A model generated the notes under the pieces. That model was not told where the DNA came from. It ran no database searches and was given only the letters and a program-made list of their open reading frames with translations. Below, piece by piece: positions 7,937-46,827 of a stretch of 64,000 bases of DNA. The stretch's first letter is position 1; each line of letters begins with the position of its first letter. The stretch is from a virus: IMG/VR virus record IMGVR_UViG_3300005830_000045, positions 16,480 through 80,479 of that record; one strand, 5' to 3'. The position numbers and the translations under genes were made by a program.

Positions 7937-10093
7937 ATGGCCAGCACAACTATACAAATACCAAACTTTGACTTTTCAGCGTTCTATTATCCGCAAATAC
8001 TTGAAGCATTGATCCGTTACAAAAGAGAAAACGTTCCAGAGCTGACGGACGAATCAGAGTTTGAACCTTCCATCCAGATGCTTCGTGCAATGGCTTTGGT
8101 CGGACACTTGAATAGTTGTACGATTGATTTAGTTGCAAATGAGTCTACGCTTCCAACGGCCCAATTGGTTGAAACAGTTCGCAATATGTTGCGGTTGATT
8201 GGGTATGAACTTTCCTCTGCTACTCCTTCACAAGTTGAACTTCTTTACAAATTATCTCGCACGTTTTCTTCCACAATAGAAATAGTTAGTGAACGTGCTC
8301 GGGTGGCGACAGAACGTTCTGGAAGCGATGCAATTATAACTGTTGAGGCGAATGCAGCTGTTTCCGTTGATCGAACAGATCAGTTAGGTGCTGCTTTTTC
8401 GTTGGAAGATGCAACATATACAGACAGAACCGCAAAACTTGTTAGCATAGCACCGGTCGATGACTTTTCACCTTGGGTCACCCCAGGCGTAGGCGACAGC
8501 CTATACTTCGGACACGCCTCAATCCTCTGGGACAAGCTCAATATCGAGCTATCTACAGGAGGTTCTGGCCTCATAGGAATTTGGGAGTTTTACGACGGCG
8601 ACTGGTTGAAGGTGAAACCTGATTCGGCCACACCAGCAGGCGCGAATATCACGTTTGTTTTGAATGGACTTTTGGGCTCTGCCCAGAGACCAGGCACGAC
8701 AGTGCGCGCTACTTTGAATGAAACAGGAGCCTATGAAGAGGCACAAGTTCAATGGAACGGCTCACAAAATTTTATAGTTGTTGGACTTCTTGGGCAATCT
8801 TCTCCTTCGTCTGACACCGAGGATTATTCTGTTGGTTCTGATTGGACTGAAATAGATGACGTTACAGACGGGACAATGAACCTTCAACAGACGGGAGAAG
8901 TTTCATATACAATCCCGCAATCTGTTACCAAGAATTGGGTGAAAACAACAGTAAATAACGTTGAAGCGTATTGGATCAGGTATCGTCTTGTAGTTGTTTC
9001 TGCGCCTGTTTCTCCTGTGTTTAGGAACACAAATTTGGACCGTGGGAATCAGTACGTGATCCAACTTGCCACCCAAGGTTTTACAACCTTAGACAGCCCT
9101 TTGGGAAGCTCAACTGGTCTTGCTGACCAACGTTTTGAAACTTCTCGTGAAAACTTTATAAAAGGCTCACAGTCTGTTGAAGTTGATAACATTGAGTGGA
9201 CAGAAGTTGACAATTTCGTGAATAGCCAACCAACTGATCGACATTACGTCATTGAGCTTGGAAAAAACGACAAAGCAACTGTAGTTTTTGGGTCTGGGGC
9301 CGCAGGGTTGATTCCACCTATTGGAGTAAATAATATCTCCATCGAATATCGGTATGGCGCTCAAGATGACGGCAACGTTGGCCCGGATACATTGAAAGTT
9401 GATAAAACAGGGTTGACTTATGTTGACTCAATAACAAATCCTCGACAAGCAAGCGGTTGGAAAGAGGCAGATGGTTCGTCAACTGAGAGCCTTGAACGGG
9501 CAAAAATTGAAGGCCCAGCATCCATTATATCTGGTGATGTCGCTATTGGGACGGATGATGTTGAAACTTTGACAAGGTCTTTTGCGGATAACCTAGGTTC
9601 AAAACCATATGCAAGAGCGTTAGCAATTGAAGAAGGATTTGGTGCGAAGACAATAGAGCTTGTTGTTGTTCTTCAAGGCGGAGGCCTTGCTTCCGCTGCT
9701 CAGCTTGAAGAATTGGCGGAATATTTCAACGGAGACAAATATTCCACACCGCCTAAACGGCAAAGGATTGTCGCCAATCAAGAGGTCACCGTTGTAAACT
9801 ACACGCCAAGAGTCATTGACGTCACAGCAGTAGTCAAGACGGAAGCAACAGCACAAGAGATCAAGAATAGACTCACACAAGTTCTCAGGCCGGAAGCTTT
9901 GAAAAATGATGGCGTAAATTATGAATGGGAATTTGGCGGTAAAGTCACAGTTTCCAGGATAAATCACGAGATATTCAGCGTTGACGAAAACACTACAGAT
10001 GTGGACATAACTTCGCCAGCGTCAGATGTACAATTAGGAGACAGGGAATTGCCTACGGTCGGCACCTTGTCTATCATAGTTGTTGAGCCGTGA
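7937..10093 (+). CDS. Baseplate J / gp6-like wedge protein
   Basis: PELTDESEFEPSI, ANESTLPTAQ, LGSSTGLADQRF, VVFGSGAAGLIPP, EYRYGAQDDGNV, ESLERAK. Confidence 0.9.
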   Translation: MASTTIQIPNFDFSAFYYPQILEALIRYKRENVPELTDESEFEPSIQMLRAMALVGHLNSCTIDLVANESTLPTAQLVETVRNMLRLIGYELSSATPSQVELLYKLSRTFSSTIEIVSERARVATERSGSDAIITVEANAAVSVDRTDQLGAAFSLEDATYTDRTAKLVSIAPVDDFSPWVTPGVGDSLYFGHASILWDKLNIELSTGGSGLIGIWEFYDGDWLKVKPDSATPAGANITFVLNGLLGSAQRPGTTVRATLNETGAYEEAQVQWNGSQNFIVVGLLGQSSPSSDTEDYSVGSDWTEIDDVTDGTMNLQQTGEVSYTIPQSVTKNWVKTTVNNVEAYWIRYRLVVVSAPVSPVFRNTNLDRGNQYVIQLATQGFTTLDSPLGSSTGLADQRFETSRENFIKGSQSVEVDNIEWTEVDNFVNSQPTDRHYVIELGKNDKATVVFGSGAAGLIPPIGVNNISIEYRYGAQDDGNVGPDTLKVDKTGLTYVDSITNPRQASGWKEADGSSTESLERAKIEGPASIISGDVAIGTDDVETLTRSFADNLGSKPYARALAIEEGFGAKTIELVVVLQGGGLASAAQLEELAEYFNGDKYSTPPKRQRIVANQEVTVVNYTPRVIDVTAVVKTEATAQEIKNRLTQVLRPEALKNDGVNYEWEFGGKVTVSRINHEIFSVDENTTDVDITSPASDVQLGDRELPTVGTLSIIVVEP

Positions 10094-15716: not shown

Positions 15717-18464
15717 ATGAGCACCGGAAAAACTTTCACAAATTTCGTGTTCAAAAGGCTACTTGCCGCTGAAGATTTCAGCACCAGGTTTCTTTACTTT
15801 CTGCTCGACAGCTTCAGAGAAGTTGTCGTAAGAGTTTTTGACGCTGACGGCATATTCGATGCAAAGATAACGTTTGCCGGATCAGCTTCAAATACGGTCA
15901 CATTTGCGCAAGGTGCTCCTGGTGACTTCCGAGGAACAGACGGATTGGGAAACATTTTAGGCCTTGGAGAGTCAGGCAGCGAAGATGAGAGCATTGGCCA
16001 AATAAAGGTTGTTGTCTTTGAAAACACGAACGCTGTTGATTATCATTTCTCTTTGGAATACGCGACAAGGCCCAAAGGGATCCAAATAAATCCTCGAAAT
16101 GGAAGGCCAGAGTACACTGAAATTGTCCAGTCTATTGGGAAAAGCGCAGCGCCAAACTCAATCGTGGACAATGGAAGTAATTTGACTTTGGTGATTGATT
16201 CTGTCTGCGAAACTTCTCATTCTCATGCTGGAAGAAAGGCGATAATTTATCTCAACACTCCAGACAAAAACGCAATAACGGAAACGATTGCAATCGAAGA
16301 GTGCACAGTGACTTGGAACGGGGTGAATAATAGAATCACGACCGCAGCCTTGCTCGGGCAAAACTCTCCATCCACCACGCCTGGAGATTACACCGTTATG
16401 CTTTTGGGACCTAGTGTCCGCAAGGTAAATACTGTCGCTGTTTCCGGGCACATATATCTTGGAAATATCACCGGCAATGGCGGTGTTCCTGGAGCTGGAG
16501 ATAACAGCAGCCAGAATTTGATTGATAGTTCATTGTCTACACTTCTTTTGTATCCAGGCGGATCAAATTGGGCAGACGGAACATCTAACCCGGCAACGAC
16601 TATCATTGATCAGCTCGATAAGATAGTGGCAGACCTCACGTCAACAAGTGGTGGCAGAGGATTGGCAAAGTTGACCGCCGCTGCTCGATCAAATTGGCAC
16701 GACGGAACGACAAACCCGACAACGATTGCTTCCACTGCTTTGAACAAGATAATTACAGACCTTGTGAATAATAGCGGATCAGACAGGATAGGCTCTGCCC
16801 AACTAACAAACGCTTGGTTGGATACAGATATAATTGCAGCCGGGTCAATCAAGGATCAATTGGAAGAAGTTGTTGGGGACTTGACTTCAACTTCTGGAGA
16901 TAGAGGGGCAGGGAAGATCACAAATCCTGCTCGGGCATCTTGGGCAGACGGAACGGCAAATGCGGCCGCAAGCGTTTCCGCTGCAATCGCAAAGATTGTG
17001 ACGGATTTGACTTCAACCACTGGAGACAGAGGACTTGGAAAGATAACAGCGCCTGCAAGGAGCAATTGGTACGATGGAACGACAAATGTTGCTGCAAATG
17101 CAGATGATGCTTTGGACAAGATTATCACAGACCTCACGACAACTCTTGGAAATAGAGGCGCAGACAAGATTTCAGCAGAGATAAACGTCAATTGGCACGA
17201 CGGCCATAGTTTTGCTTCTGGAAGCATTCACGATTTGCTTGCGGCGATAGTCACAGACCTTTCCGCTGATGGCTTTGGTTCTGATCGCATTGATAGCGAA
17301 GAAATAGGAAACAACATTGTTGCCGGTTTTACGAGTGATGTCTTTGTCGTTTCTGCTGGTTCCATCAAGGATCAACTTCAAGAAATTATAAATGAGTTGA
17401 CGTCTCCTACGGCAGTTGCTTTTTACGCTGCGAGGAATTACAATGTCATTGAAACAGTCCTTGGCTCCTCTTTTACAATCAGAAGTTTTTTCCCAAACAA
17501 TTCAAGCGGATCAATTGGTTGGGAAAACGCATGGTATGCCGTTGGAGATGATGGCGCTGGTACAGTTTCAAATATTCGATACGCACAAAAACATCTTGGT
17601 GATACTTGGACCACAGGGCCTGCTTGGAATGGGACATTTGTGGATATTGTTGATGTCGTGGCTATGGGCGGTTCGCAAGACCGTGTAATTGCAATGGGGC
17701 ACGATTCAACCGGAGTGCTATTGAATTACACAGACGACGACATGGGCGGGGTTTTCTCTAGTTCAAGTCCAAGCGGCAGAAGCGATTTGACAGGGAAAGC
17801 TTTACACCTTTGGAGTGCAAGAACTTATCTTGGAAGCAATCAGAACGTTGCCGGAACAGGGGATGTCATTCTTTACACCGATGATATTTCAGGCGGATGG
17901 GCGGTTCCAACTACAATTCCATCGACATGTCGCGGCATTTATGCCTTCGCCCATAGCACTGCCAACGATTATGTTGTAGCAGGTGGCATAGATAGTTCAG
18001 GCAAAATTATGTTTCTTCGTTCTGCTGTTGGATCTCCAGAGACATGGACTGATGTCACGCCTGCATCTCCTCAAACTGGTAGGGTGTATGACCTTGTGTA
18101 TGATTGGAAAAGGAGTGTGTATTGGGCTTTGGCGACAAATGGGGAGATTTATCGCTCTGATTCAGTTGGACAGAATTGGGTAAAAAAGGCTAATGGATTG
18201 AATGGAACTTTTGGGTATATGGCCATAGACAGCCATGGCATTCTTGTTTTTAGCGATAGCACACTATCTCAACTTTTTGGCGTCACAAGAGATGTTGTGA
18301 ATTATGACGAAATATCAATAGGAGAAGAAACACATTGGAGTAATGGTTACAAAAAAGTAAGAAATTATCGCGGAAAGTTTATTTGTGCATCTGGAAATGA
18401 TCTCTTGGTCAGCGGGACGTTTGTGTTCGGTGAAAGCTCATTGCGATATATAGGTTCTGAATAA
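15717..18464 (+). CDS. Tail fibre / receptor-binding protein
   Basis: 915 aa; central repeats W.DGT.N...(L/I).KI(V/I).DLT; C-terminal BNR/Asp-box-like segments (YRSDSVGQNW). Confidence 0.75.
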   Translation: MSTGKTFTNFVFKRLLAAEDFSTRFLYFLLDSFREVVVRVFDADGIFDAKITFAGSASNTVTFAQGAPGDFRGTDGLGNILGLGESGSEDESIGQIKVVVFENTNAVDYHFSLEYATRPKGIQINPRNGRPEYTEIVQSIGKSAAPNSIVDNGSNLTLVIDSVCETSHSHAGRKAIIYLNTPDKNAITETIAIEECTVTWNGVNNRITTAALLGQNSPSTTPGDYTVMLLGPSVRKVNTVAVSGHIYLGNITGNGGVPGAGDNSSQNLIDSSLSTLLLYPGGSNWADGTSNPATTIIDQLDKIVADLTSTSGGRGLAKLTAAARSNWHDGTTNPTTIASTALNKIITDLVNNSGSDRIGSAQLTNAWLDTDIIAAGSIKDQLEEVVGDLTSTSGDRGAGKITNPARASWADGTANAAASVSAAIAKIVTDLTSTTGDRGLGKITAPARSNWYDGTTNVAANADDALDKIITDLTTTLGNRGADKISAEINVNWHDGHSFASGSIHDLLAAIVTDLSADGFGSDRIDSEEIGNNIVAGFTSDVFVVSAGSIKDQLQEIINELTSPTAVAFYAARNYNVIETVLGSSFTIRSFFPNNSSGSIGWENAWYAVGDDGAGTVSNIRYAQKHLGDTWTTGPAWNGTFVDIVDVVAMGGSQDRVIAMGHDSTGVLLNYTDDDMGGVFSSSSPSGRSDLTGKALHLWSARTYLGSNQNVAGTGDVILYTDDISGGWAVPTTIPSTCRGIYAFAHSTANDYVVAGGIDSSGKIMFLRSAVGSPETWTDVTPASPQTGRVYDLVYDWKRSVYWALATNGEIYRSDSVGQNWVKKANGLNGTFGYMAIDSHGILVFSDSTLSQLFGVTRDVVNYDEISIGEETHWSNGYKKVRNYRGKFICASGNDLLVSGTFVFGESSLRYIGSE

Positions 18465-36909: not shown

Positions 36910-38260
36910 TCAGAATGAAGACACGACCATTGACACTATGGTATTCAACAAGCGTTTGATGAATAACATTGTCAGACTTCCTTTTGAAGTTGAAACAGCT
37001 CGTGGTTCTGCTATTCGTACTGTTCAGGGGCACGTTTTGTTGGATTTCTGGGGCGATGAAGGCGTATGTAGTCTTGGATACAACACAGAAGAATACAGAA
37101 GGATAGTGGATAATTTTCACAGCAGTGGACAACCGCATCAGTTGCCAGATGTTTATCCCCAGACCTCCAGATTCAACGCAGCAGAGAAGATTTGCCAGAT
37201 GACAGATATGGACCGCATCTTTTTCGCAAATAGCGGTACAGAAGCGAATGAAGCAGCCATCAAAATTGCAAGAAAATTTTGGTGGGATAAGTATAGCAAT
37301 ATATATAGAGAAGGAAGAATAAAGTCAAATAAAGCGTACGCACGGCGGCATATAGTTCTCACAATTGCCGGAAACTTTCATGGCAGAACTGGGCTAAGCA
37401 GCGCGGCAAGCGACCCAAGGGTCAGTCCGTATCACCATTGGGGGTTTGGCCCGAAGCCAAAAGGTTTTGGCGTTATCGACGATAAGACTTTCCTTCAAGT
37501 CGTTACAGACGGCGATGTCCATGAAGATTATCCGATTGAACCTGATTGGTCCAACGTTGCTGCTGTGATTCTTGCTCCGGTTTTGGGAAACAATTTGGTA
37601 AAGACATATTCTAAAAGCTTTTGGGAGGAACTTGGAGCTTTGAGGAAGAAGCACGGATTTCTTATTATCCACGATGACGTTCAAGCCGGAAGCGGAAGAG
37701 CAGGTTGGCCAGCAACGTATCAAGGGATTTCTGTCTTTGATTCGAGGTTTGAAAGCTTGGTCAAACCAGACATATTGTGTCTCGGGAAAGGCATGGCTCT
37801 TGGCTATCCAATGAGCGCGATGCTTGCCTCTGAAGAAGTTGCTTCCGCTTTTACTCCCGGTGTCCACTTCAACACTTTTGGAGGCAGCCCTTTCGTTTGT
37901 TATCTTGCCGAGCAATATTATAGTTGGCTTGAATTGGAACTTCCGAAAGTCAGAGATTTGGGCGAGGCAATTCGTTTGCGTTTCTCTGAAATGGCCTGGA
38001 TCAAGGAGCATGACGGGTCTGGTTTGCTCAACGCTTTCACGCCTAATTTCGGGAAGTATGGATATGATGGTTTTGAGTTTTGTCACAAGGCTCGTGATTT
38101 CGGCATTAGCATTGTGACCCATCGACGATATGGGCCAATTCGATTCACGCCTCCAATGAACGTTGCTCCTGATGAGATTGCTACCGCCTTTATTGCGTTG
38201 GAAAGAACACACAAGTTTTTGACAAAAGAACACAGAAGCTTTAGGTTGGAGGATGAATAG
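36899..38260 (+). CDS. Class III PLP aminotransferase (ArgD/OAT-like)
   Basis: NSGTEANEAAIK, FHGRT, HDDVQAGSGRAG, PDILCLGKG (PLP Lys), HFNTFGGSP, RFTPP. Confidence 0.92.
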   Translation: MMSNQNEDTTIDTMVFNKRLMNNIVRLPFEVETARGSAIRTVQGHVLLDFWGDEGVCSLGYNTEEYRRIVDNFHSSGQPHQLPDVYPQTSRFNAAEKICQMTDMDRIFFANSGTEANEAAIKIARKFWWDKYSNIYREGRIKSNKAYARRHIVLTIAGNFHGRTGLSSAASDPRVSPYHHWGFGPKPKGFGVIDDKTFLQVVTDGDVHEDYPIEPDWSNVAAVILAPVLGNNLVKTYSKSFWEELGALRKKHGFLIIHDDVQAGSGRAGWPATYQGISVFDSRFESLVKPDILCLGKGMALGYPMSAMLASEEVASAFTPGVHFNTFGGSPFVCYLAEQYYSWLELELPKVRDLGEAIRLRFSEMAWIKEHDGSGLLNAFTPNFGKYGYDGFEFCHKARDFGISIVTHRRYGPIRFTPPMNVAPDEIATAFIALERTHKFLTKEHRSFRLEDE

Positions 38261-38840
38261 CGTAGTGATACTGGACGGGTTGAATGCAAGCGGAAAGACA
38301 TTCTGCGCGGAAACGCTTTCTGAATTGCTTCCAGCCCCAATAATACGTCCATTTAGAGAAAACAATGAGCATCTTGGAAGAGAAGATAAAGGCGCTCAAG
38401 AAAACCTACACAAACTTGGCATCCCGGCCAATACGTTTGTCGATGATGCTTATACGTCTGACTTTTTGGTTCAAACAGGAGTAAGCGCTGTTTTGGACCG
38501 TTCTATGGGTTCTGGCATTGCCTATGGCCTTCTGTACGGAAACATTGCGAATATGAAGCACGCCAGAGAATTGTTGTCGCTTTGGCAAGAGAGCATCACG
38601 AGGTATAACGGAAACATTTTGTATGTGTATATGATTGCTCGGAAAGAAGTCAGGAAGAAAAGGTGTAAAGCTGAAGGAAGATGGCACCCTAACGCTTCAC
38701 AGGACAAACTGCTTTATAAAGTCTTTGATCTTGTTTTTAGGTGTATTGAATTTGAAAAGATATTGGTTGATTCTTCCGATATAGCCCAGGAATGCATTGG
38801 TCCGGTTGTTGCGAAGAAGATAATCAAAAGACTGAGGTGA
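38253..38840 (+). CDS. dNMP (thymidylate-like) kinase
   Basis: LDGLNASGKT P-loop; VLDRSMGSGIAYG. Confidence 0.8.
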   Translation: MNSVVILDGLNASGKTFCAETLSELLPAPIIRPFRENNEHLGREDKGAQENLHKLGIPANTFVDDAYTSDFLVQTGVSAVLDRSMGSGIAYGLLYGNIANMKHARELLSLWQESITRYNGNILYVYMIARKEVRKKRCKAEGRWHPNASQDKLLYKVFDLVFRCIEFEKILVDSSDIAQECIGPVVAKKIIKRLR

Positions 38841-39590: not shown

Positions 39591-42500
39591 ATGCATGATT
39601 CAGAAAAGAAAGAAGATTTTGTTCATCTCCACACTCATAGTGATTTGAGTCAGCTTGACGGCTGCGGAAAGATTTCTGATTACGTGGACGCAGCCCATAA
39701 GCGTGGAAATCCAGCAATCTCGTTCACTGATCATGGAACTATGAGAGGATACATGACGCAGTATGAGGAGTGCAAGAGGGCTGGAATCAAGCCAATCTAC
39801 GGGGTTGAATTCTACGTTTCTCGAAATATGTACCGTAAGGGTATCACCGCTGAAGAAAAGACGGAACTTTCAAAGGGCAGGACCAAGGCGCAAGCGAAGG
39901 AGGTGATTGCGCAATACGAAATAAATGAAGGGATCAGAAAGCGTTGGCACCTGACGGTGCACGCCGAAACAGAAGCGGGGCTGAAAAACCTTTTCAGACT
40001 GACCTCGAAAGCTTTCATTGAAGGTTTTTACTACAAGCCTCGAATAGATATTGAAACGCTCTGCGAGCACAGCGAAGGTTTGATTGTTTCTTCTGGTTGC
40101 GTTGGAAGTCCAGTCAATAGTAATTGGTTTGAAGGGAATAGGCGTTATGCCGTTGAAGTATCAGATAAGTTGCATGAGGTGTTCCAAGACCGTTATATGA
40201 TTGAAATTCAGCCGCACGATATAGCAGAACAGCTGGAAGCGAATAAGTTGGCTGTGAAACTCAGGAAAAGATATGGCGGGAAATCGCGTCTTGTCGCGAC
40301 GCAAGATGCTCATTATATCAACAAAAGTGATGCCGTTCACCACGATGTTCTTCTTTGCATAGGCACAGGAAGTTATCTTTCAGACCCAAAGCGTATGAAG
40401 TTTGACGGCGATGAATTTCATATGCGAACACGTCGTGAGATGATTCGAGCATTCATGAAGTGGCACAGCGGATTGACCAAGGGCCAAATAAAAGAGGCAT
40501 TGGACACCACGATGCTCTTCCACGAGCGTTGCAACGTCAAACTCAATATTGACTATCACGCAGCCTTGCTTCCTGATCCTGGTATCCCTCCTGAATATGT
40601 CGATGATTTCTCGTATTTGAAAGATTTGTGCATTCAAGGTTGGAGCTGGAGAGAAATACCGGCAAGGGCTTTAGCGTATTCGGTGAAACACGGGGTGCCT
40701 TACGAGGAAGCTTTGTCGCTTTACAGCAAACGTTTGAAGCATGAACTTGGAGCTATAAAGAAGCAAAGATTTGTTCCGTATTTTATTCTAATACACGACT
40801 TGTATCGTTGGGCACGCGGTGAGAATATAATGGTTGGCCCTGGTCGTGGAAGCGTAGCAGGTTGCCTAATTGGGTATCTGATCGGATTGACTTCTGTTGA
40901 CCCTATTGATCATGGGTTGATCTTTGAGCGATTCATCAACCCAAATCGTATCGACATGCCTGATATTGATATGGACTTTGAAGACAGGAGAAGGCAAGAG
41001 GTTTTTGCATACCTCAGGAGGAAGTACGGTGAAGACAAAGTTTGCCAAATTGCCACCGTTGGCAAGCTATCCGGGAAGCAGTGTCTCAAGGATGTTTCTC
41101 GCGTTCTACAGGTTCCATACGCGGAAGTCAACCAGGTGACAAATTCCATCATCGAGCGTTCTAGCGGGGATGAACGGGCATCGCAGACAATTGAAGACTC
41201 TTTCAAGGAGTTTGAAATATGTCGAGATTTTGATAAGAGATACCCGAAAGTTTTGTATCATTCAAAACGTCTTGAAGGCATGGCCAAAAACTTGGGAATA
41301 CACGCTGCAGGAGCTGTTGCCTCTCCGGTGCCGCTGACAGATATCATCCCTCTGGAAGTGAGGAAGCATAATGGGAAAGATGTTATAGTCTCAGCCGTGG
41401 ACATGTACGGCGTTGCTGCGAGTGGTTTGGTAAAGCTCGATGTTTTAGGTTTGCGCACACTCACCGTTTTGAAAGAAGCGACAGAAGCGATAGAAGAAAG
41501 GCATGGCAGGAAGATTGACCTTGAATCAGCAGAAGTTGATTTGAGCGACCCGAAAGTTTTGAAGGGGTTCACAGATCACGATTATGGAGGCGTTTTTCAG
41601 TATGATACGCCTTCAGCGGACAAGGTCTGTTCAGGCGTCAAGTTCTCTTCTTTCGAGGACATTGCCGCCATGACAGCTCTCAACAGGCCAGGCACATCCA
41701 GAAGCGGTTTGGCATCCCGATATGTGGACAGAAAAAAGAATCCAGAGAAAGCAAAGAAACACGATTTCCATCCAGCTGTTTCCGAGATAACGAAGGACAC
41801 GTTGGGCATTATCGTGTACCAAGAGCACGTCATAAAGATATTCACAGACATCGCTGGATTTGCTCCGGCAACGGCTGACTCTTTGCGTAAAACAATCGCT
41901 AAAAAGATTGGCGATGAAACCATGGGGAAGGAACGTGCCAACTTTGTTGCTGGAGCTGTTGAGAAAACGGGAATGGACGAGAAAACCGCACATAAGATTA
42001 TGGACGCGATAACTTTTTTCGGGTGCGTTCCTTGGTGGACGCAAATAGCAACGCCATTTGGGCCAAGGGCAATTGATTCTTTGTCTGATGGTGATGAAAT
42101 TTACAGCGTTGAAGAATGCGGGAAAGTTGTCATCAATACCATAAAGACGGTCACAAGCACAGGGCCAAAGGATTTGTATCGAATAACTGCGAGCGGTTTT
42201 ATGGTTGATTCTTCCAACGACCACTATTGGGAGTGCATGGAAGGAGGTTACAAAAAGGCTAGTGAGCTTTGTGAAGGTGAATTCATATCGTATGTTATGG
42301 GGCATGGATTCAAATCATCCGAAAAAGAAAAGCTTTTGCTTGAAGAAGGATTGCGCAAGGGAAGTGTTTTGCCGAGGATTGTGCAGCCTTCATTATCAGA
42401 GACAGTACAGAAAGAAGCGGACAGAAAAGGGCAACCCTGTGAGCAGTGCGCACAACAAGTGGCCCGGAGCACCGGGCAAGGGTTGGAAAAGGGGCAAAAA

Positions 42501-44357
42501 CAAGAATACGCATCCAGGGATAGCAGCGCACGCGAAAGCTATGATGGGAGAGTTGAATCCGGCTTGGACAGACTGGAGTTATTCAGAATTCAAAATAATG
42601 AAAGATACGCTGCTGGAAAAGATAAAGGTCTGCCAAAGGTGCGGTTGCCCTCCGGACGAGGGAAGCGATGCCCCGAATGTGAGAGTTTTGCACGTCCACC
42701 ACAAGAACAGAAACAAAAAGGACAATTCGGCGGACAACTTGGAAGTTCTCTGTCAATCTTGTCACAGCAAGGAGCATTGGGAGGAAAAGCACTCTGGTGG
42801 ATTCGGGTGGATGAAATTCGTCAAATAGCAGATAGATCAACGCACAGAAGTGGTTGCCCTGCTAGGGATATTGAGTGTTATGACATAGAGGTTGATTCTA
42901 GTCCATGTAATTATGTGGCTAACGGAATAATATGCCATAATTCCTATGGATTCAATAAGAGCCATGCAACAGCTTATGGGATGATAGCGTTTTGGTGCAT
43001 GTTTCTCAAGACCTATTATCCTCTTGAGTTTTATTGGTCGCTGTTGAAAAACGAGCCAGACCGTGTCCGGATACAACAGTTGGCGAAACACGCAAAGAAG
43101 AAAGGCATATCATTCTTGTCGCCTTCTGTGAACACTTCCAAGGCGCACTTTGCCATAGATGATAGTCGTGGAGCAATTCGAGGTTCCCTTGTAGACATAA
43201 AAGGAGTTGGGACAGCGGCAGCGAAAGCTATTATGGCGACGCAGCCTTATACTGACTTTTTTGACTTCCTTGATCGAGTAGACAAGAGAAAGGTTCACAA
43301 AGGCGTCGTGGCTTCTCTTGTCCGGGCAGGAGCACTGGATGATTTGGTCCCCAATCCTCGGTGGCTTATTGAGAACATGGAAGCATTCTGGAAGCAAGTT
43401 GCGAAGAAGTCAGAGGAAGCGCAGAAAGAAGCAAGGCGGATGATTGAGGCGTCAAAGGATGAAAAGTCTTGGGACGCAGAGGAAAAGCAGCTTATCGCTT
43501 CCAAGGTGAACCCTCTTGCTTTCGGGAAGCACCCGATGGATACTTACAAGGATTTCTTGAATAAAAACGTGAAGATAAAGATTGCAGATATGTCAGCTGG
43601 TGATTTCTATGAGAGGAATGATGGAAGAATAGTCCTTGTCGGTGGAACTATAGTGGAAGTGAAACTCAATCAAATAGGTGACTTTCACACTGGAAGGCTG
43701 CCGACTGAAGAGGAACGTGAGCGTATGTTTTGGGGGAAACGTTATGCTAACGTAAACATAGAAGATATTGGCGGAGTTCAGAATAGAATCAAGTTTGATT
43801 GGGACGTTTACCCTGGTATGCGTCCTGTTATTGAATTAGGTTTGGGTGCTCCGGTGCTCGTGATGGCCTCTGTGAATGCGAAATTTGAGAACATGAGGGC
43901 TTTTTTCGCAGTCGATTTGGAGGGGATGAGAAAGAAGTTGATTTCGGGGAAACCATTGGGCATGTGGGAAAGCATTGTGACCGGAAACCATCCTGTGAAG
44001 CACATAAAGGCTAAGAGCGATGCCGTCAAAAGAGCCATGTGGACCAATAAATATTACAGGATGTCTCCGAAAGGAGGTCCATTTTGGGGTGTTGTGACGA
44101 ACATTCGTTTGAAATACGACAAGCGCGGTCAACTTATGGCTTTCTTTGGTCTTATTGGCGGCAACGGTTTCATGATTGATGTAATTTGCTTTGCTTCTCA
44201 ATGGGAATTTGTCAAAACTGTAATCAGCGTTGAACAGGTGTTGAAGATAGAAATAGGCAGATCAAGAGAAAGAGGCAGAGGAGTGTCTCACATTTTCAAC
44301 GGTGGCTTGGTAAAAAGTTTCAAGTCTGTTTGTGAAAAGGAGAAAGAAGATGAGTAA
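39591..44357 (+). CDS. dnaE: DNA polymerase III alpha subunit containing an intein
   Basis: HLHTHS, TDHG, DAH (PHP); GPGRGS; PDIDMDF; HAAG; KLDVLGL; YGFNKSH; OB folds. Confidence 0.97.
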   Translation: MHDSEKKEDFVHLHTHSDLSQLDGCGKISDYVDAAHKRGNPAISFTDHGTMRGYMTQYEECKRAGIKPIYGVEFYVSRNMYRKGITAEEKTELSKGRTKAQAKEVIAQYEINEGIRKRWHLTVHAETEAGLKNLFRLTSKAFIEGFYYKPRIDIETLCEHSEGLIVSSGCVGSPVNSNWFEGNRRYAVEVSDKLHEVFQDRYMIEIQPHDIAEQLEANKLAVKLRKRYGGKSRLVATQDAHYINKSDAVHHDVLLCIGTGSYLSDPKRMKFDGDEFHMRTRREMIRAFMKWHSGLTKGQIKEALDTTMLFHERCNVKLNIDYHAALLPDPGIPPEYVDDFSYLKDLCIQGWSWREIPARALAYSVKHGVPYEEALSLYSKRLKHELGAIKKQRFVPYFILIHDLYRWARGENIMVGPGRGSVAGCLIGYLIGLTSVDPIDHGLIFERFINPNRIDMPDIDMDFEDRRRQEVFAYLRRKYGEDKVCQIATVGKLSGKQCLKDVSRVLQVPYAEVNQVTNSIIERSSGDERASQTIEDSFKEFEICRDFDKRYPKVLYHSKRLEGMAKNLGIHAAGAVASPVPLTDIIPLEVRKHNGKDVIVSAVDMYGVAASGLVKLDVLGLRTLTVLKEATEAIEERHGRKIDLESAEVDLSDPKVLKGFTDHDYGGVFQYDTPSADKVCSGVKFSSFEDIAAMTALNRPGTSRSGLASRYVDRKKNPEKAKKHDFHPAVSEITKDTLGIIVYQEHVIKIFTDIAGFAPATADSLRKTIAKKIGDETMGKERANFVAGAVEKTGMDEKTAHKIMDAITFFGCVPWWTQIATPFGPRAIDSLSDGDEIYSVEECGKVVINTIKTVTSTGPKDLYRITASGFMVDSSNDHYWECMEGGYKKASELCEGEFISYVMGHGFKSSEKEKLLLEEGLRKGSVLPRIVQPSLSETVQKEADRKGQPCEQCAQQVARSTGQGLEKGQKQEYASRDSSARESYDGRVESGLDRLELFRIQNNERYAAGKDKGLPKVRLPSGRGKRCPECESFARPPQEQKQKGQFGGQLGSSLSILSQQGALGGKALWWIRVDEIRQIADRSTHRSGCPARDIECYDIEVDSSPCNYVANGIICHNSYGFNKSHATAYGMIAFWCMFLKTYYPLEFYWSLLKNEPDRVRIQQLAKHAKKKGISFLSPSVNTSKAHFAIDDSRGAIRGSLVDIKGVGTAAAKAIMATQPYTDFFDFLDRVDKRKVHKGVVASLVRAGALDDLVPNPRWLIENMEAFWKQVAKKSEEAQKEARRMIEASKDEKSWDAEEKQLIASKVNPLAFGKHPMDTYKDFLNKNVKIKIADMSAGDFYERNDGRIVLVGGTIVEVKLNQIGDFHTGRLPTEEERERMFWGKRYANVNIEDIGGVQNRIKFDWDVYPGMRPVIELGLGAPVLVMASVNAKFENMRAFFAVDLEGMRKKLISGKPLGMWESIVTGNHPVKHIKAKSDAVKRAMWTNKYYRMSPKGGPFWGVVTNIRLKYDKRGQLMAFFGLIGGNGFMIDVICFASQWEFVKTVISVEQVLKIEIGRSRERGRGVSHIFNGGLVKSFKSVCEKEKEDE
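42024..42941 (+). mobile_element. Intein in DnaE (306 aa)
   Basis: FFG|CVPWWTQI (block A), SSNDHYW (block B), CYDIEV...NYVANGIICHN|S (blocks F/G); removal restores FFGSYGFNKSH. Confidence 0.95.
42292..42828 (+). CDS. HNH homing endonuclease nested in the +1 frame of the intein
   Basis: C....C......GLC..HY Zn motif; GELNPAW; CQRCG...LHVHHKNRNKKDNSADNLEVLCQSCHSKEH; ORF open from 42205. Confidence 0.9.
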   Translation: MLWGMDSNHPKKKSFCLKKDCAREVFCRGLCSLHYQRQYRKKRTEKGNPVSSAHNKWPGAPGKGWKRGKNKNTHPGIAAHAKAMMGELNPAWTDWSYSEFKIMKDTLLEKIKVCQRCGCPPDEGSDAPNVRVLHVHHKNRNKKDNSADNLEVLCQSCHSKEHWEEKHSGGFGWMKFVK

Positions 44358-45464: not shown

Positions 45465-46685
45465 GTGGGAATTGATATGAAGTGTATGCGTAGAACGTAT
45501 GACGAGAATCAGCGTGGAGGCGACATCTGGACGGCTGATGTTGGCGTGACCATGGTCTATATCCATGGACAATGTCGAGAGGATGGCCATGAACCGACCA
45601 AGGGCTTGAACCATGTTCCGGTTGTCGTTCACTATGGTCTTGGTCGCGATGGCCGGCAAATGGTTGTTTGTTTGGATCAAGAGAGGAATCCTATTGTCAC
45701 GCATCCGTTCGTGAAAGCGTATTTGAAATCAAAAGGTGTAAAGATTGGCAAGAAGTGCCCTGTTTGTCGTGCGATTGAAAGCGGAGAAATGGACGCTGAT
45801 CAAGCTGACCGTTCTGCTCCTACAACCAGATTTCTTTGGGGTGTCACGCCTATCGCTCACAAACCATCGAAATCTTCCGAGGGATGGAATAAGCTCACGC
45901 CAAAGCCGCAGTGCACTTTCGTTGGTTCTACGCTTTACAACGGTTTCATGGATTTGTTTTTTGAAAATGGGGATATCACAGACTTGGACCAAGCAACTTT
46001 TGCCTTGATCTATCGCACTGGGAAGGGGCAATATGACACAAAGTACGAGGTGAAGATTGATCCGGCCACGCTGAAATCTCCGAAAAAGATTCCAGGAGCG
46101 TTGCGACGGGTATTGATCAAGTCTGTCTCGAAAGATGGCGATTGTGATCTTTTCCGTATTGTCGCGAACATGGTCAAAAGCACGGAAGATATCAAAGGCT
46201 TGCTTTCTGGTGCAACTGTCGACACGTCTGAAGGCGATGACGATGACTTTGATGAAGGCGATTTGGTCGATGATGATAGTGTCTTGGGCGATGATGAACT
46301 TGATGACGGTGGTGATGGCCTCGATGACGGTGGTGATGGCCTCGATGATGACGGTGATGACGGTGATGACTTTGACGGCGATGACGGCGATGAAGGCGAT
46401 GACTTTGACGGTGAACTCGATGACGGTGATGATCTTCTTGGCGAGGATGGTGACGAGGCAGCCGCAAGCGAGGATACACCCGAGGATACAGGCGATGATG
46501 AAGAAGAGGCAGAGGAGGCAGAAGAGGACACCTCTGGCGATGACGATGATGACTTGGGCCTTGATGAGTTGGATGCTGAACTCGAAAGGGTGACCAAAAA
46601 GGCAATCGAAAATAAAGCGAAGAAAGCTGGCAAGCTTGTCATCAAGCCTGCCAAAAAGCGTATAAATAAGAAAGCAAAAGCCTAA
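45465..46685 (+). CDS. ssDNA-binding protein (T4 gp32-like) with long acidic tract
   Basis: VHYGL...VCL...CPVC; GDITD...RTGKG..DTKYEV; Asp/Gly-rich tail. Confidence 0.8.
   Translation: MGIDMKCMRRTYDENQRGGDIWTADVGVTMVYIHGQCREDGHEPTKGLNHVPVVVHYGLGRDGRQMVVCLDQERNPIVTHPFVKAYLKSKGVKIGKKCPVCRAIESGEMDADQADRSAPTTRFLWGVTPIAHKPSKSSEGWNKLTPKPQCTFVGSTLYNGFMDLFFENGDITDLDQATFALIYRTGKGQYDTKYEVKIDPATLKSPKKIPGALRRVLIKSVSKDGDCDLFRIVANMVKSTEDIKGLLSGATVDTSEGDDDDFDEGDLVDDDSVLGDDELDDGGDGLDDGGDGLDDDGDDGDDFDGDDGDEGDDFDGELDDGDDLLGEDGDEAAASEDTPEDTGDDEEEAEEAEEDTSGDDDDDLGLDELDAELERVTKKAIENKAKKAGKLVIKPAKKRINKKAKA
46302..46343 (+). repeat. 21-bp tandem duplication in the SSB acidic tract
   Basis: GATGACGGTGGTGATGGCCTC x2. 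Confidence 0.85.
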
Positions 46686-46827
46686 TAGGCTTTCAAGGAG
46701 TTGGGCGAACCTCACATGCCGCCGATAGCCGATTCAATGGCCTCTGCCTGGGCTTGCGGGAAATTGGGAAAGTTTGGGGTGACACTCCGGAGAGACGGGG
46801 CCAATCTTTTTGCTTGAGGTATTTTCC

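Follow-up and report, generated by a model that had tools for sequence, protein, structure and literature searches.

We analyzed a 64,000-nucleotide (nt) stretch of viral DNA, hereafter the window (positions 16,480 to 80,479 of the IMG/VR virus record IMGVR_UViG_3300005830_000045), in which the dnaE gene for the DNA polymerase III alpha subunit contains an intein, and the middle of this intein, when read in the +1 frame, encodes an HNH endonuclease. The most likely explanation, to which we assign a probability of approximately 0.85, is that this is a mobile class-1 intein in a replicative polymerase gene, and that its homing endonuclease is a separate gene overprinted on the intein. An earlier interpretation of this DNA, made without database searches (the sequence-only reading), had described such dual coding; its coordinates, candidate start codons and TAG stop codon were all correct when open reading frames (ORFs) and translations were checked. 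The source record is 80,479 bp long, is classed as linear and is estimated to be 78% complete. Nearly all long ORFs of the window are located on the + strand, and so are all features of the window described below, unless stated otherwise.

The dnaE precursor ORF, intein included, occupies positions 39591-44357 (1588 codons and a stop codon), and its 1588-residue product contains the Pfam domains PHP, DNA_pol3_alpha, DNA_pol3_finger and HHH_6. The intein (306 codons, positions 42024-42941) is located between FFG and SYGFNKSH; it starts with the TGC codon at 42024 (Cys1) and ends with CAT-AAT at 42936-42941 (His-Asn), followed by TCC (Ser+1). Because intein-less DnaE homologues read AITFFGSYGFNKSHAT unbroken, with FFGSYGFNKSH uninterrupted, the insertion is precise. 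The residues C1, H67 (block B, in S-N-D-H), D287 (block F), H305 and N306 are invariant in the inteins of the window and eight relatives. The match to the Pfam family Intein_splicing is under its cut-off (25 bits versus 35.8). The conserved residues and the modeled fold described below support a class-1 intein whose splicing blocks are intact in the DnaE frame and which is predicted to splice.

In a structural model of the intein, built for the DnaE frame with an eight-sequence alignment, residues 1-93 and 257-306 are confident, with a predicted local distance difference test (pLDDT) score of 82-92, whereas residues 94-256 have a pLDDT of 31-42. The low-confidence stretch coincides with the HNH ORF. 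The first confident region is the Hint N-lobe with blocks A and B (42024-42302), which aligns to mini-inteins of the DnaE homologues P0015 and P0013. The second, placed by the model and the alignment, is the Hint C-lobe with blocks F and G (42792-42941), in which the pLDDT is 85-88 outside a loop at residues 275-280. When the middle was trimmed, the model aligned with the NpuDnaB mini-intein 4o1r over 133 residues with a Z-score of 20.1 and a root-mean-square deviation of 1.4 Å; 30 further Hint-fold chains, comprising inteins and related domains, were found at Z > 8, and mini-inteins among them scored 17-20. Between the lobes lies a passenger linker, which is the HNH gene read through in the DnaE frame (residues 94-256, positions 42303-42791). 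This linker is predicted to be disordered. Q, G, R, S, K and E make up 61% of its 163 residues, versus 38% in the extein, its identity among loci is low, and a Pfam search with it gave no match; these results bear out the motif-less middle, rich in Gln, Gly, Arg and Ser, that had been noticed previously. As a side observation, the C-lobe of the window has an extra loop of ~12 residues, which includes the low-pLDDT positions 275-280 (42846-42863) and is not found in the eight relatives.

The HNH endonuclease ORF in the +1 frame runs from ATG 42304 to its own stop codon, TAG 42826-42828, inside the intein (42304-42828, 174 codons). Alternative starts at ATG 42292 and GTG 42262 would yield 178 and 188 codons, respectively, and the frame is open from 42187 to this TAG, i.e., for 213 codons. 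The product matches Pfam PF01844 with 28.4 bits (curated cut-off 21.4; 31 bits in the genome scan), and its PHROG matches comprise 13 families, 12 of which are labeled HNH endonuclease; a weak match to a family labeled terminase small subunit was also detected. This is the sole HNH in the 80-kb record, which is 78% complete. The catalytic core (residues 106-162 of the 174-residue form, positions 42619-42789) consists of a CxxC motif (C110, C113), H130/H132/H133, N145 and a CxxC-H motif (C150, C153, H154); the catalytic residues H133, N145 and H154 and the zinc ligands C110, C113, C150 and C153 are invariant in 10 of 10 sequences. Upstream of it, an N-terminal Cys/His knuckle (C12, C17, C27 and H30; positions 42337-42393) is a probable DNA-recognition motif that would bind zinc: C17, G25 and C27 are conserved at the level of at least 90%, Y31 is invariant, and position 30 is His or Cys. 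The structural model of the HNH protein has a mean pLDDT of 76 (80-87 in the knuckle and 90-97 in the catalytic core), and is composed of the N-terminal knuckle, a helical middle and a beta-beta-alpha core of two strands and a helix. In a Foldseek search with this model, the top rows were the HNH nucleases McrA (6ghc), Cas5-HNH, GVE2 (5h0m) and T4 EndoVII, all of them weak (E > 0.001), and a profile search of PDB sequences with the HNH protein found nothing at E up to 0.01. The +1 ORF is thus an HNH endonuclease by profile and residues; cleavage activity and empty dnaE as its target are predicted.

Protein homologues were collected using DnaE residues 700-1250, a query that included the intein. 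Many DnaE homologues have ~1280 residues and no insert, and a set of ~1570-1580 residues carries an insert of ~290 residues at the same site, with a middle rich in R, G, S, Q and E that shows faint conservation. The DNA of relatives was retrieved by two routes: a degenerate pattern for the HN/SYGFNKSHA junction (here and below, a slash marks the insertion junction) was run over viral contigs, and the alignment of +1 proteins was scanned over viral and metagenome contigs. Searches for related loci with a single intein or a single HNH protein gave nothing useful, whereas the junction pattern and the HNH alignment succeeded. We found nine distinct loci with a full-length HNH, originating from different metagenomes (the window, L005, L006/L008, L007, L014, L058, L060, L061 and L063). 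In a canonical in-frame HNH intein the nuclease is in the frame of the splicing domain; in all nine loci, however, the HNH is in the +1 frame of a DnaE intein located at FFG/C...HN/SYGFNK.

Every full-length HNH relative found in the viral and metagenome contigs sits in a DnaE intein. No free-standing close relative was found in these contigs or in the protein library, where the matches outside DnaE inteins were to the generic HNH core only. In phage GenBank, blastn with positions 41000-44000 gave no match, and tblastn with the HNH protein gave one weak match, to the core only, in Xanthomonas phage DES1. The library comprises 1.84 billion representative proteins, and similarity to most of the length of the HNH was seen in only three called proteins; therefore, gene callers almost never report this ORF. 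One of the three, the short protein P0003 (158 residues, from a 655-bp contig), resembles the DnaE-frame shadow of the HNH gene in its N-terminal half and the HNH frame in its C-terminal half, and reads as if an insertion or deletion (indel), real or erroneous, had fused the two frames. It should be noted that P0004, P0006, P0011, P0012, P0020, P0096 and others are known only as proteins, and +1 ORFs in this group were deduced from a shadow-like middle in the DnaE frame. In-frame inteins with a short HNH are found at FG/SYGFNKSH in the more distant phage DnaE genes L003, L004 and L009, and in-frame HNH inteins six residues downstream, at FNK/SHA, in P0019 and P0015; judging from these sequences, the use of both sites would make the SYGFNKSH motif an insertion hot spot.

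Using the HNH protein alignment as a guide, we aligned the DNAs of the nine loci and calculated the mean pairwise nucleotide difference for each codon position. Formal estimation of the ratio of nonsynonymous to synonymous substitution rates was judged uninformative, with synonymous sites saturated at 36-61% protein identity, and codon-position variability was used instead. In the overlap, the HNH (+1) frame showed differences of 0.42, 0.37 and 0.61 at codon positions 1, 2 and 3, with an amino acid identity of 51% (66% positives), and the DnaE frame showed differences of 0.61, 0.42 and 0.37, with an identity of 25% (42% positives). Variability in the overlap is lowest at the wobble position of the DnaE frame, because this position corresponds to the second position of HNH codons. 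Outside the overlap, in the Hint-only columns, the DnaE frame has a normal codon-position pattern (0.43, 0.34 and 0.66; amino acid identity 46%). Among loci, the HNH proteins are 36-61% identical, versus 24-44% for the Hint domain.

A stop codon in the DnaE frame requires an HNH codon ending in T that is followed by a codon starting with AA, AG or GA. Such stop-making T-ending codons were found at 0 of 456 sites in the nine HNH ORFs, versus 1116 of 4493 (25%) in the ordinary genes of the window (Fisher p ~8e-49), whereas the frequency of T-ending codons is otherwise normal in the HNH ORFs (26%). These results show that the HNH protein is subject to purifying selection, and that the DnaE frame in the overlap has a relaxed protein constraint but is selected for the absence of stop codons.

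The dual open frames exceed chance. In the other + strand genes of this phage, stop codons occur at 0.051 per codon in the +1 frame and 0.072 in the +2 frame, and the longest +1 run without a stop has 158 codons. In back-translations of the HNH protein based on the codon usage of the phage, the DnaE frame was open in 0 of 20000 trials. The third frame over the same stretch contains 10 stop codons in the window and 4-17 across the loci. The assertion of the sequence-only reading that an unselected frame would seldom stay open for so long is well founded, given these back-translations and the longest run observed elsewhere.

In eight of the nine loci, a Shine-Dalgarno (SD) sequence, from GAGG to AGGAGG, is found 3-9 nt upstream of an ATG or TTG that is set 0-2 residues before the first conserved Cys, and the recurring G-G-K/N-E of the relatives' DnaE-frame linker is the shadow of this SD sequence. 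In five loci (L005, L058, L063, L006 and L060), the +1 frame has a stop codon 0-8 codons upstream of the SD-led start. The SD-led starts together with these upstream stops argue for independent initiation rather than frameshifting, as far as can be judged from the sequences. The candidate ribosome-binding region of the window (42242-42280) contains AGGAGG at 42242-42247, 14 nt from GTG 42262, and AAGGTGA at 42274-42280, 11 nt from ATG 42292; ATG 42304 has no good SD sequence and is preceded by 39 open codons in the +1 frame. Since these spacings exceed the 3-9 nt of the relatives, the start in the window is uncertain. No + strand promoter-like site and no + strand terminator-like site were found in positions 41800-43100; in view of the former, the dnaE mRNA probably serves as the template for translation of the HNH. 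The suggestion that nuclease expression is uncoupled from polymerase expression may thus hold, at most, for translation. The more general claim that both frames are under selection is upheld by the nine loci, through codon-position variability, stop avoidance and conserved SD and start signals.

We propose the following scheme. Ribosomes translating dnaE would pass through the nuclease gene in the DnaE frame, producing a disordered linker of 163 residues between the Hint lobes; the lobes would fold together and excise the intein by means of Cys1, the block-B His, the block-F Asp, His-Asn and Ser+1, restoring FFG-SYGFNKSH. Other ribosomes would initiate inside the intein, on the same mRNA but in the +1 frame, and synthesize a free HNH endonuclease of ~20 kDa with the N-terminal Cys/His knuckle, the helical middle and a zinc-bound HNH core. 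In mixed infections, the nuclease would cut intein-less dnaE near the FFG/SYG codons, and recombinational repair would copy in the intein together with the nuclease gene. Splicing, internal initiation, nuclease activity and its target are predictions of this scheme.

Mobility of the intein can be evaluated using closely related alleles. The proteins P0009, P0020, P0096 and P0102 have 97.5-98.6% extein identity. According to these protein sequences, P0009 carries the intein with the HNH shadow; P0020 has the intein of P0009 minus a clean 146 codons, so that the HNH ORF is gone while the SD shadow and the tail are kept; and P0096 and P0102 have no intein. This series has the pattern that would be expected of a homing cycle in which the intein is gained, loses its nuclease and is then precisely lost. 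Closely related pairs in which one member has the intein and the other does not are common, for example P0011 and P0071 (94% extein identity) and P0005 and P0046 (90%). The nearest exteins to that of the window, P0019 (73%) and P0028 (70%), have no intein at this site. On a tree of 111 exteins, 15 large inteins were recognized at the site, all of them singletons, with 15 changes for 15 rows, as for shuffled labels.

Several points weigh against the interpretation of a mobile intein with an overprinted nuclease gene. The protein set of this tree was gathered with an intein-including query, and intein-bearing proteins are therefore over-sampled. The divergence of the HNH tracks that of the extein (Spearman 0.67), which suggests long co-residence or transfer among close kin rather than free horizontal spread. 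The window itself is a weak case, with poor SD-to-start spacing (14 and 11 nt) and an uncertain start. Finally, no + strand promoter-like site was found nearby, so that expression would require ribosomes to initiate internally on an mRNA already under translation.

Retention of the HNH for a benefit to the phage beyond homing, for example cutting the dnaE of intein-less rivals in co-infection (marker exclusion) or aiding DNA packaging, a role that some phage HNH proteins have, would be in line with long retention, as suggested by the higher conservation of the HNH compared to the Hint domain and by the correlation with extein divergence, and the weak terminase-labeled PHROG match points in the same direction. 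However, the HNH is dispensable, since one near-identical allele is missing it through a clean deletion and others have no intein at all; in addition, homing elements are classically arranged in this way, with the nuclease inside an intein at a conserved target motif. We consider this alternative improbable. A relic is even harder to reconcile with the data. In this scenario, an ancestral in-frame HNH intein lost its frame by indels, the HNH ORF is silent, and the DnaE frame alone is selected; the existence of in-frame HNH inteins at the same site and six residues downstream in related DnaE genes, and the weak start signals of the window, would be in line with it. Decay of the HNH would then be expected, yet variability peaks at the third position of HNH codons, the HNH frame has twice the amino acid identity of the DnaE frame, the catalytic and zinc-binding residues are all invariant across sequences that are 36-61% identical, and the SD sequence and start are kept in eight of nine loci. 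Furthermore, the in-frame HNH domains at this site are shorter and of a different type. A relic is therefore very unlikely.

Programmed +1 frameshifting on dnaE, which would yield a fusion of the N-extein, Hint-N and the HNH with no start of its own, fits the 39 open codons before ATG 42304 and the missing well-spaced SD sequence in the window. The five relatives with a stop 0-8 codons before the SD-led start leave almost no room for it, no conserved slippery motif was noticed, although no search was aimed at one, and we regard frameshifting as having only a slight chance of being correct. Of all the alternatives, the least credible is an artefact in which two compensating assembly or sequencing indels conceal a conventional in-frame HNH intein. 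Although the record was assembled from a metagenome, the same +1 register is found in nine independent assemblies, and the HNH frame has its own stop codon inside the intein. Moreover, an in-frame HNH hidden by indels would imply that the DnaE frame is not translated across the middle, and nothing would then keep this frame open; yet it is open against the expectation from the 20000 back-translations and is free of stops at all 456 sites at risk. The overprinted homing endonuclease gene thus remains the preferred explanation.

With regard to the origin of this gene, the sequence-only reading proposed that a free-standing HNH gene invaded a mini-intein. Sequence comparisons make this plausible: the HNH has its own SD sequence, start and stop; the same site carries mini-inteins without the cassette in P0015 (residues 811-964) and P0013 (residues 819-958), with 37-39% N-lobe identity to the window; and in L006 (8089-8967) the +1 HNH cassette, 8132-8617, is located directly after block A, at approximately residue 14 of the intein. 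The same arrangement is seen in L008, L011, L012 and L059, on contigs of two samples, and in L006/L008 the usual nuclease site between blocks B and F is closed, as in mini-inteins. The position of the cassette in a different loop suggests placement independent of the splicing domain. On the other side, no free-standing relative was found, and the HNH deletion in P0020 indicates that mini-inteins can also arise by deletion. A more far-reaching and tentative idea, which we think is probably not correct, is that the HNH ORF with its SD sequence and stop-free passenger frame is itself the mobile cassette, able to settle in any permissive loop of a translated gene and moving independently of the intein. 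If true, the stop-free second frame would be an adaptation of the nuclease gene to life inside ORFs, and intein-borne cases would be linked to intein-less ones such as ShiLan (see below).

Inteins with an out-of-frame nuclease are a class that is already published, in preprints of 2025-26 reporting EndoVII-like and LAGLIDADG nucleases. In actinophage inteins, EndoVII-like nucleases are out of frame, LAGLIDADG or VSR-like nucleases are antisense, and HNH occurs in frame only (bioRxiv 10.1101/2025.01.02.630785); the mention of recent actinobacteriophage reports in the sequence-only reading was correct, although the out-of-frame nuclease there is EndoVII-like, not HNH. The actinophage inteins likewise have intact splicing lobes, a structureless in-frame middle and a same-strand nuclease ORF in another frame, and the same study also proposes invasion of the intein by a free-standing nuclease gene. 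They differ in that the EndoVII-like nuclease is in frame 3, whereas here a PF01844 HNH with a Cys/His knuckle is in the +1 frame of a polymerase III alpha gene in uncultured phages. A cyanobacterial DnaX intein contains a LAGLIDADG nuclease in the +2 frame (Phillips, DeSimone and Gogarten, bioRxiv 10.64898/2026.09.14.751524), which was first noted by Gorbalenya (1998). In that case, too, the nuclease frame is selected and the host frame relaxed, alleles of the full, mini and empty kinds are found side by side, and a mini-intein was proposed to have been invaded secondarily, but the system is cellular, with dnaX as the host gene, a LAGLIDADG nuclease and a +2 ORF. The ShiLan domain is an out-of-frame HNH within a phage DNA methylase gene (Arsenault et al. 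2025, PMC11855218). Similarly to the present case, the HNH ORF is hidden in another frame and the host frame is stop-free through it; however, ShiLan has no splicing domain and the read-through peptide stays in the methylase, whereas here it would be removed with the intein.

Canonical in-frame HNH inteins were described by Dalgaard et al. (1997), as cited in the actinophage study. Those of L003, L004, L009 and P0019/P0015 resemble the present intein in nuclease superfamily, host gene and target motif, but in them the HNH domain belongs to the intein polypeptide and is produced in a 1:1 ratio with DnaE, is shorter, and lacks the N-terminal knuckle and the middle domain. Dassa et al. (2009), as cited in the actinophage study, and reportedly Bonocora and Shub (2009) described a free-standing endonuclease adjacent to an intein that has no nuclease, as well as split-intein "fractured genes". 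There, too, nuclease and splicing element are encoded separately and act together in mobility, but the nuclease lies beside the intein or between the gene halves, whereas here it is nested by overprinting in an uninterrupted intein ORF. In the literature searched, the coverage of which is incomplete and does not prove absence, we found no description of a DnaE intein with an out-of-frame HNH.

The general layout is therefore known, and the present case adds a new nuclease family and host gene to it without opening a new kind. Gene callers miss the nuclease, and such inteins are misread as decaying inteins or mini-inteins. The family is a clean natural test of overlapping-gene evolution, in which one frame is selected for its protein and the other only for the absence of stops, and it lends support to the view that inteins acquire their nucleases in the form of free-standing genes. 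To study the homing cycle in phage populations, one could use the three near-identical forms of dnaE (full, HNH-deleted and empty).

Several additional observations were made. Other large inserts, of 306-359 residues, occupy the same site in P0016, P0018, P0025, P0030 and P0034; the insert of P0016, the only one read, has a junk-like middle, and some of the five may hide further out-of-frame nucleases. The DnaE protein P0015 (1990 residues) appears to carry three inteins: the 154-residue mini-intein at FFG/S, which is the closest N-lobe match to the intein of the window, the in-frame HNH intein at FNK/SHA, and a third element ending in HN near residue 1540. Two antisense ORFs at the locus, 41631-42305 and 42583-42840, lack Pfam matches and were taken as chance ORFs. 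The first of them is one of the long antisense ORFs (224-328 codons) that overlap + strand genes in the window, together with 37397-38365 and 45732-46715, all on the - strand; these long ORFs are probably due to chance, favored by codon bias.

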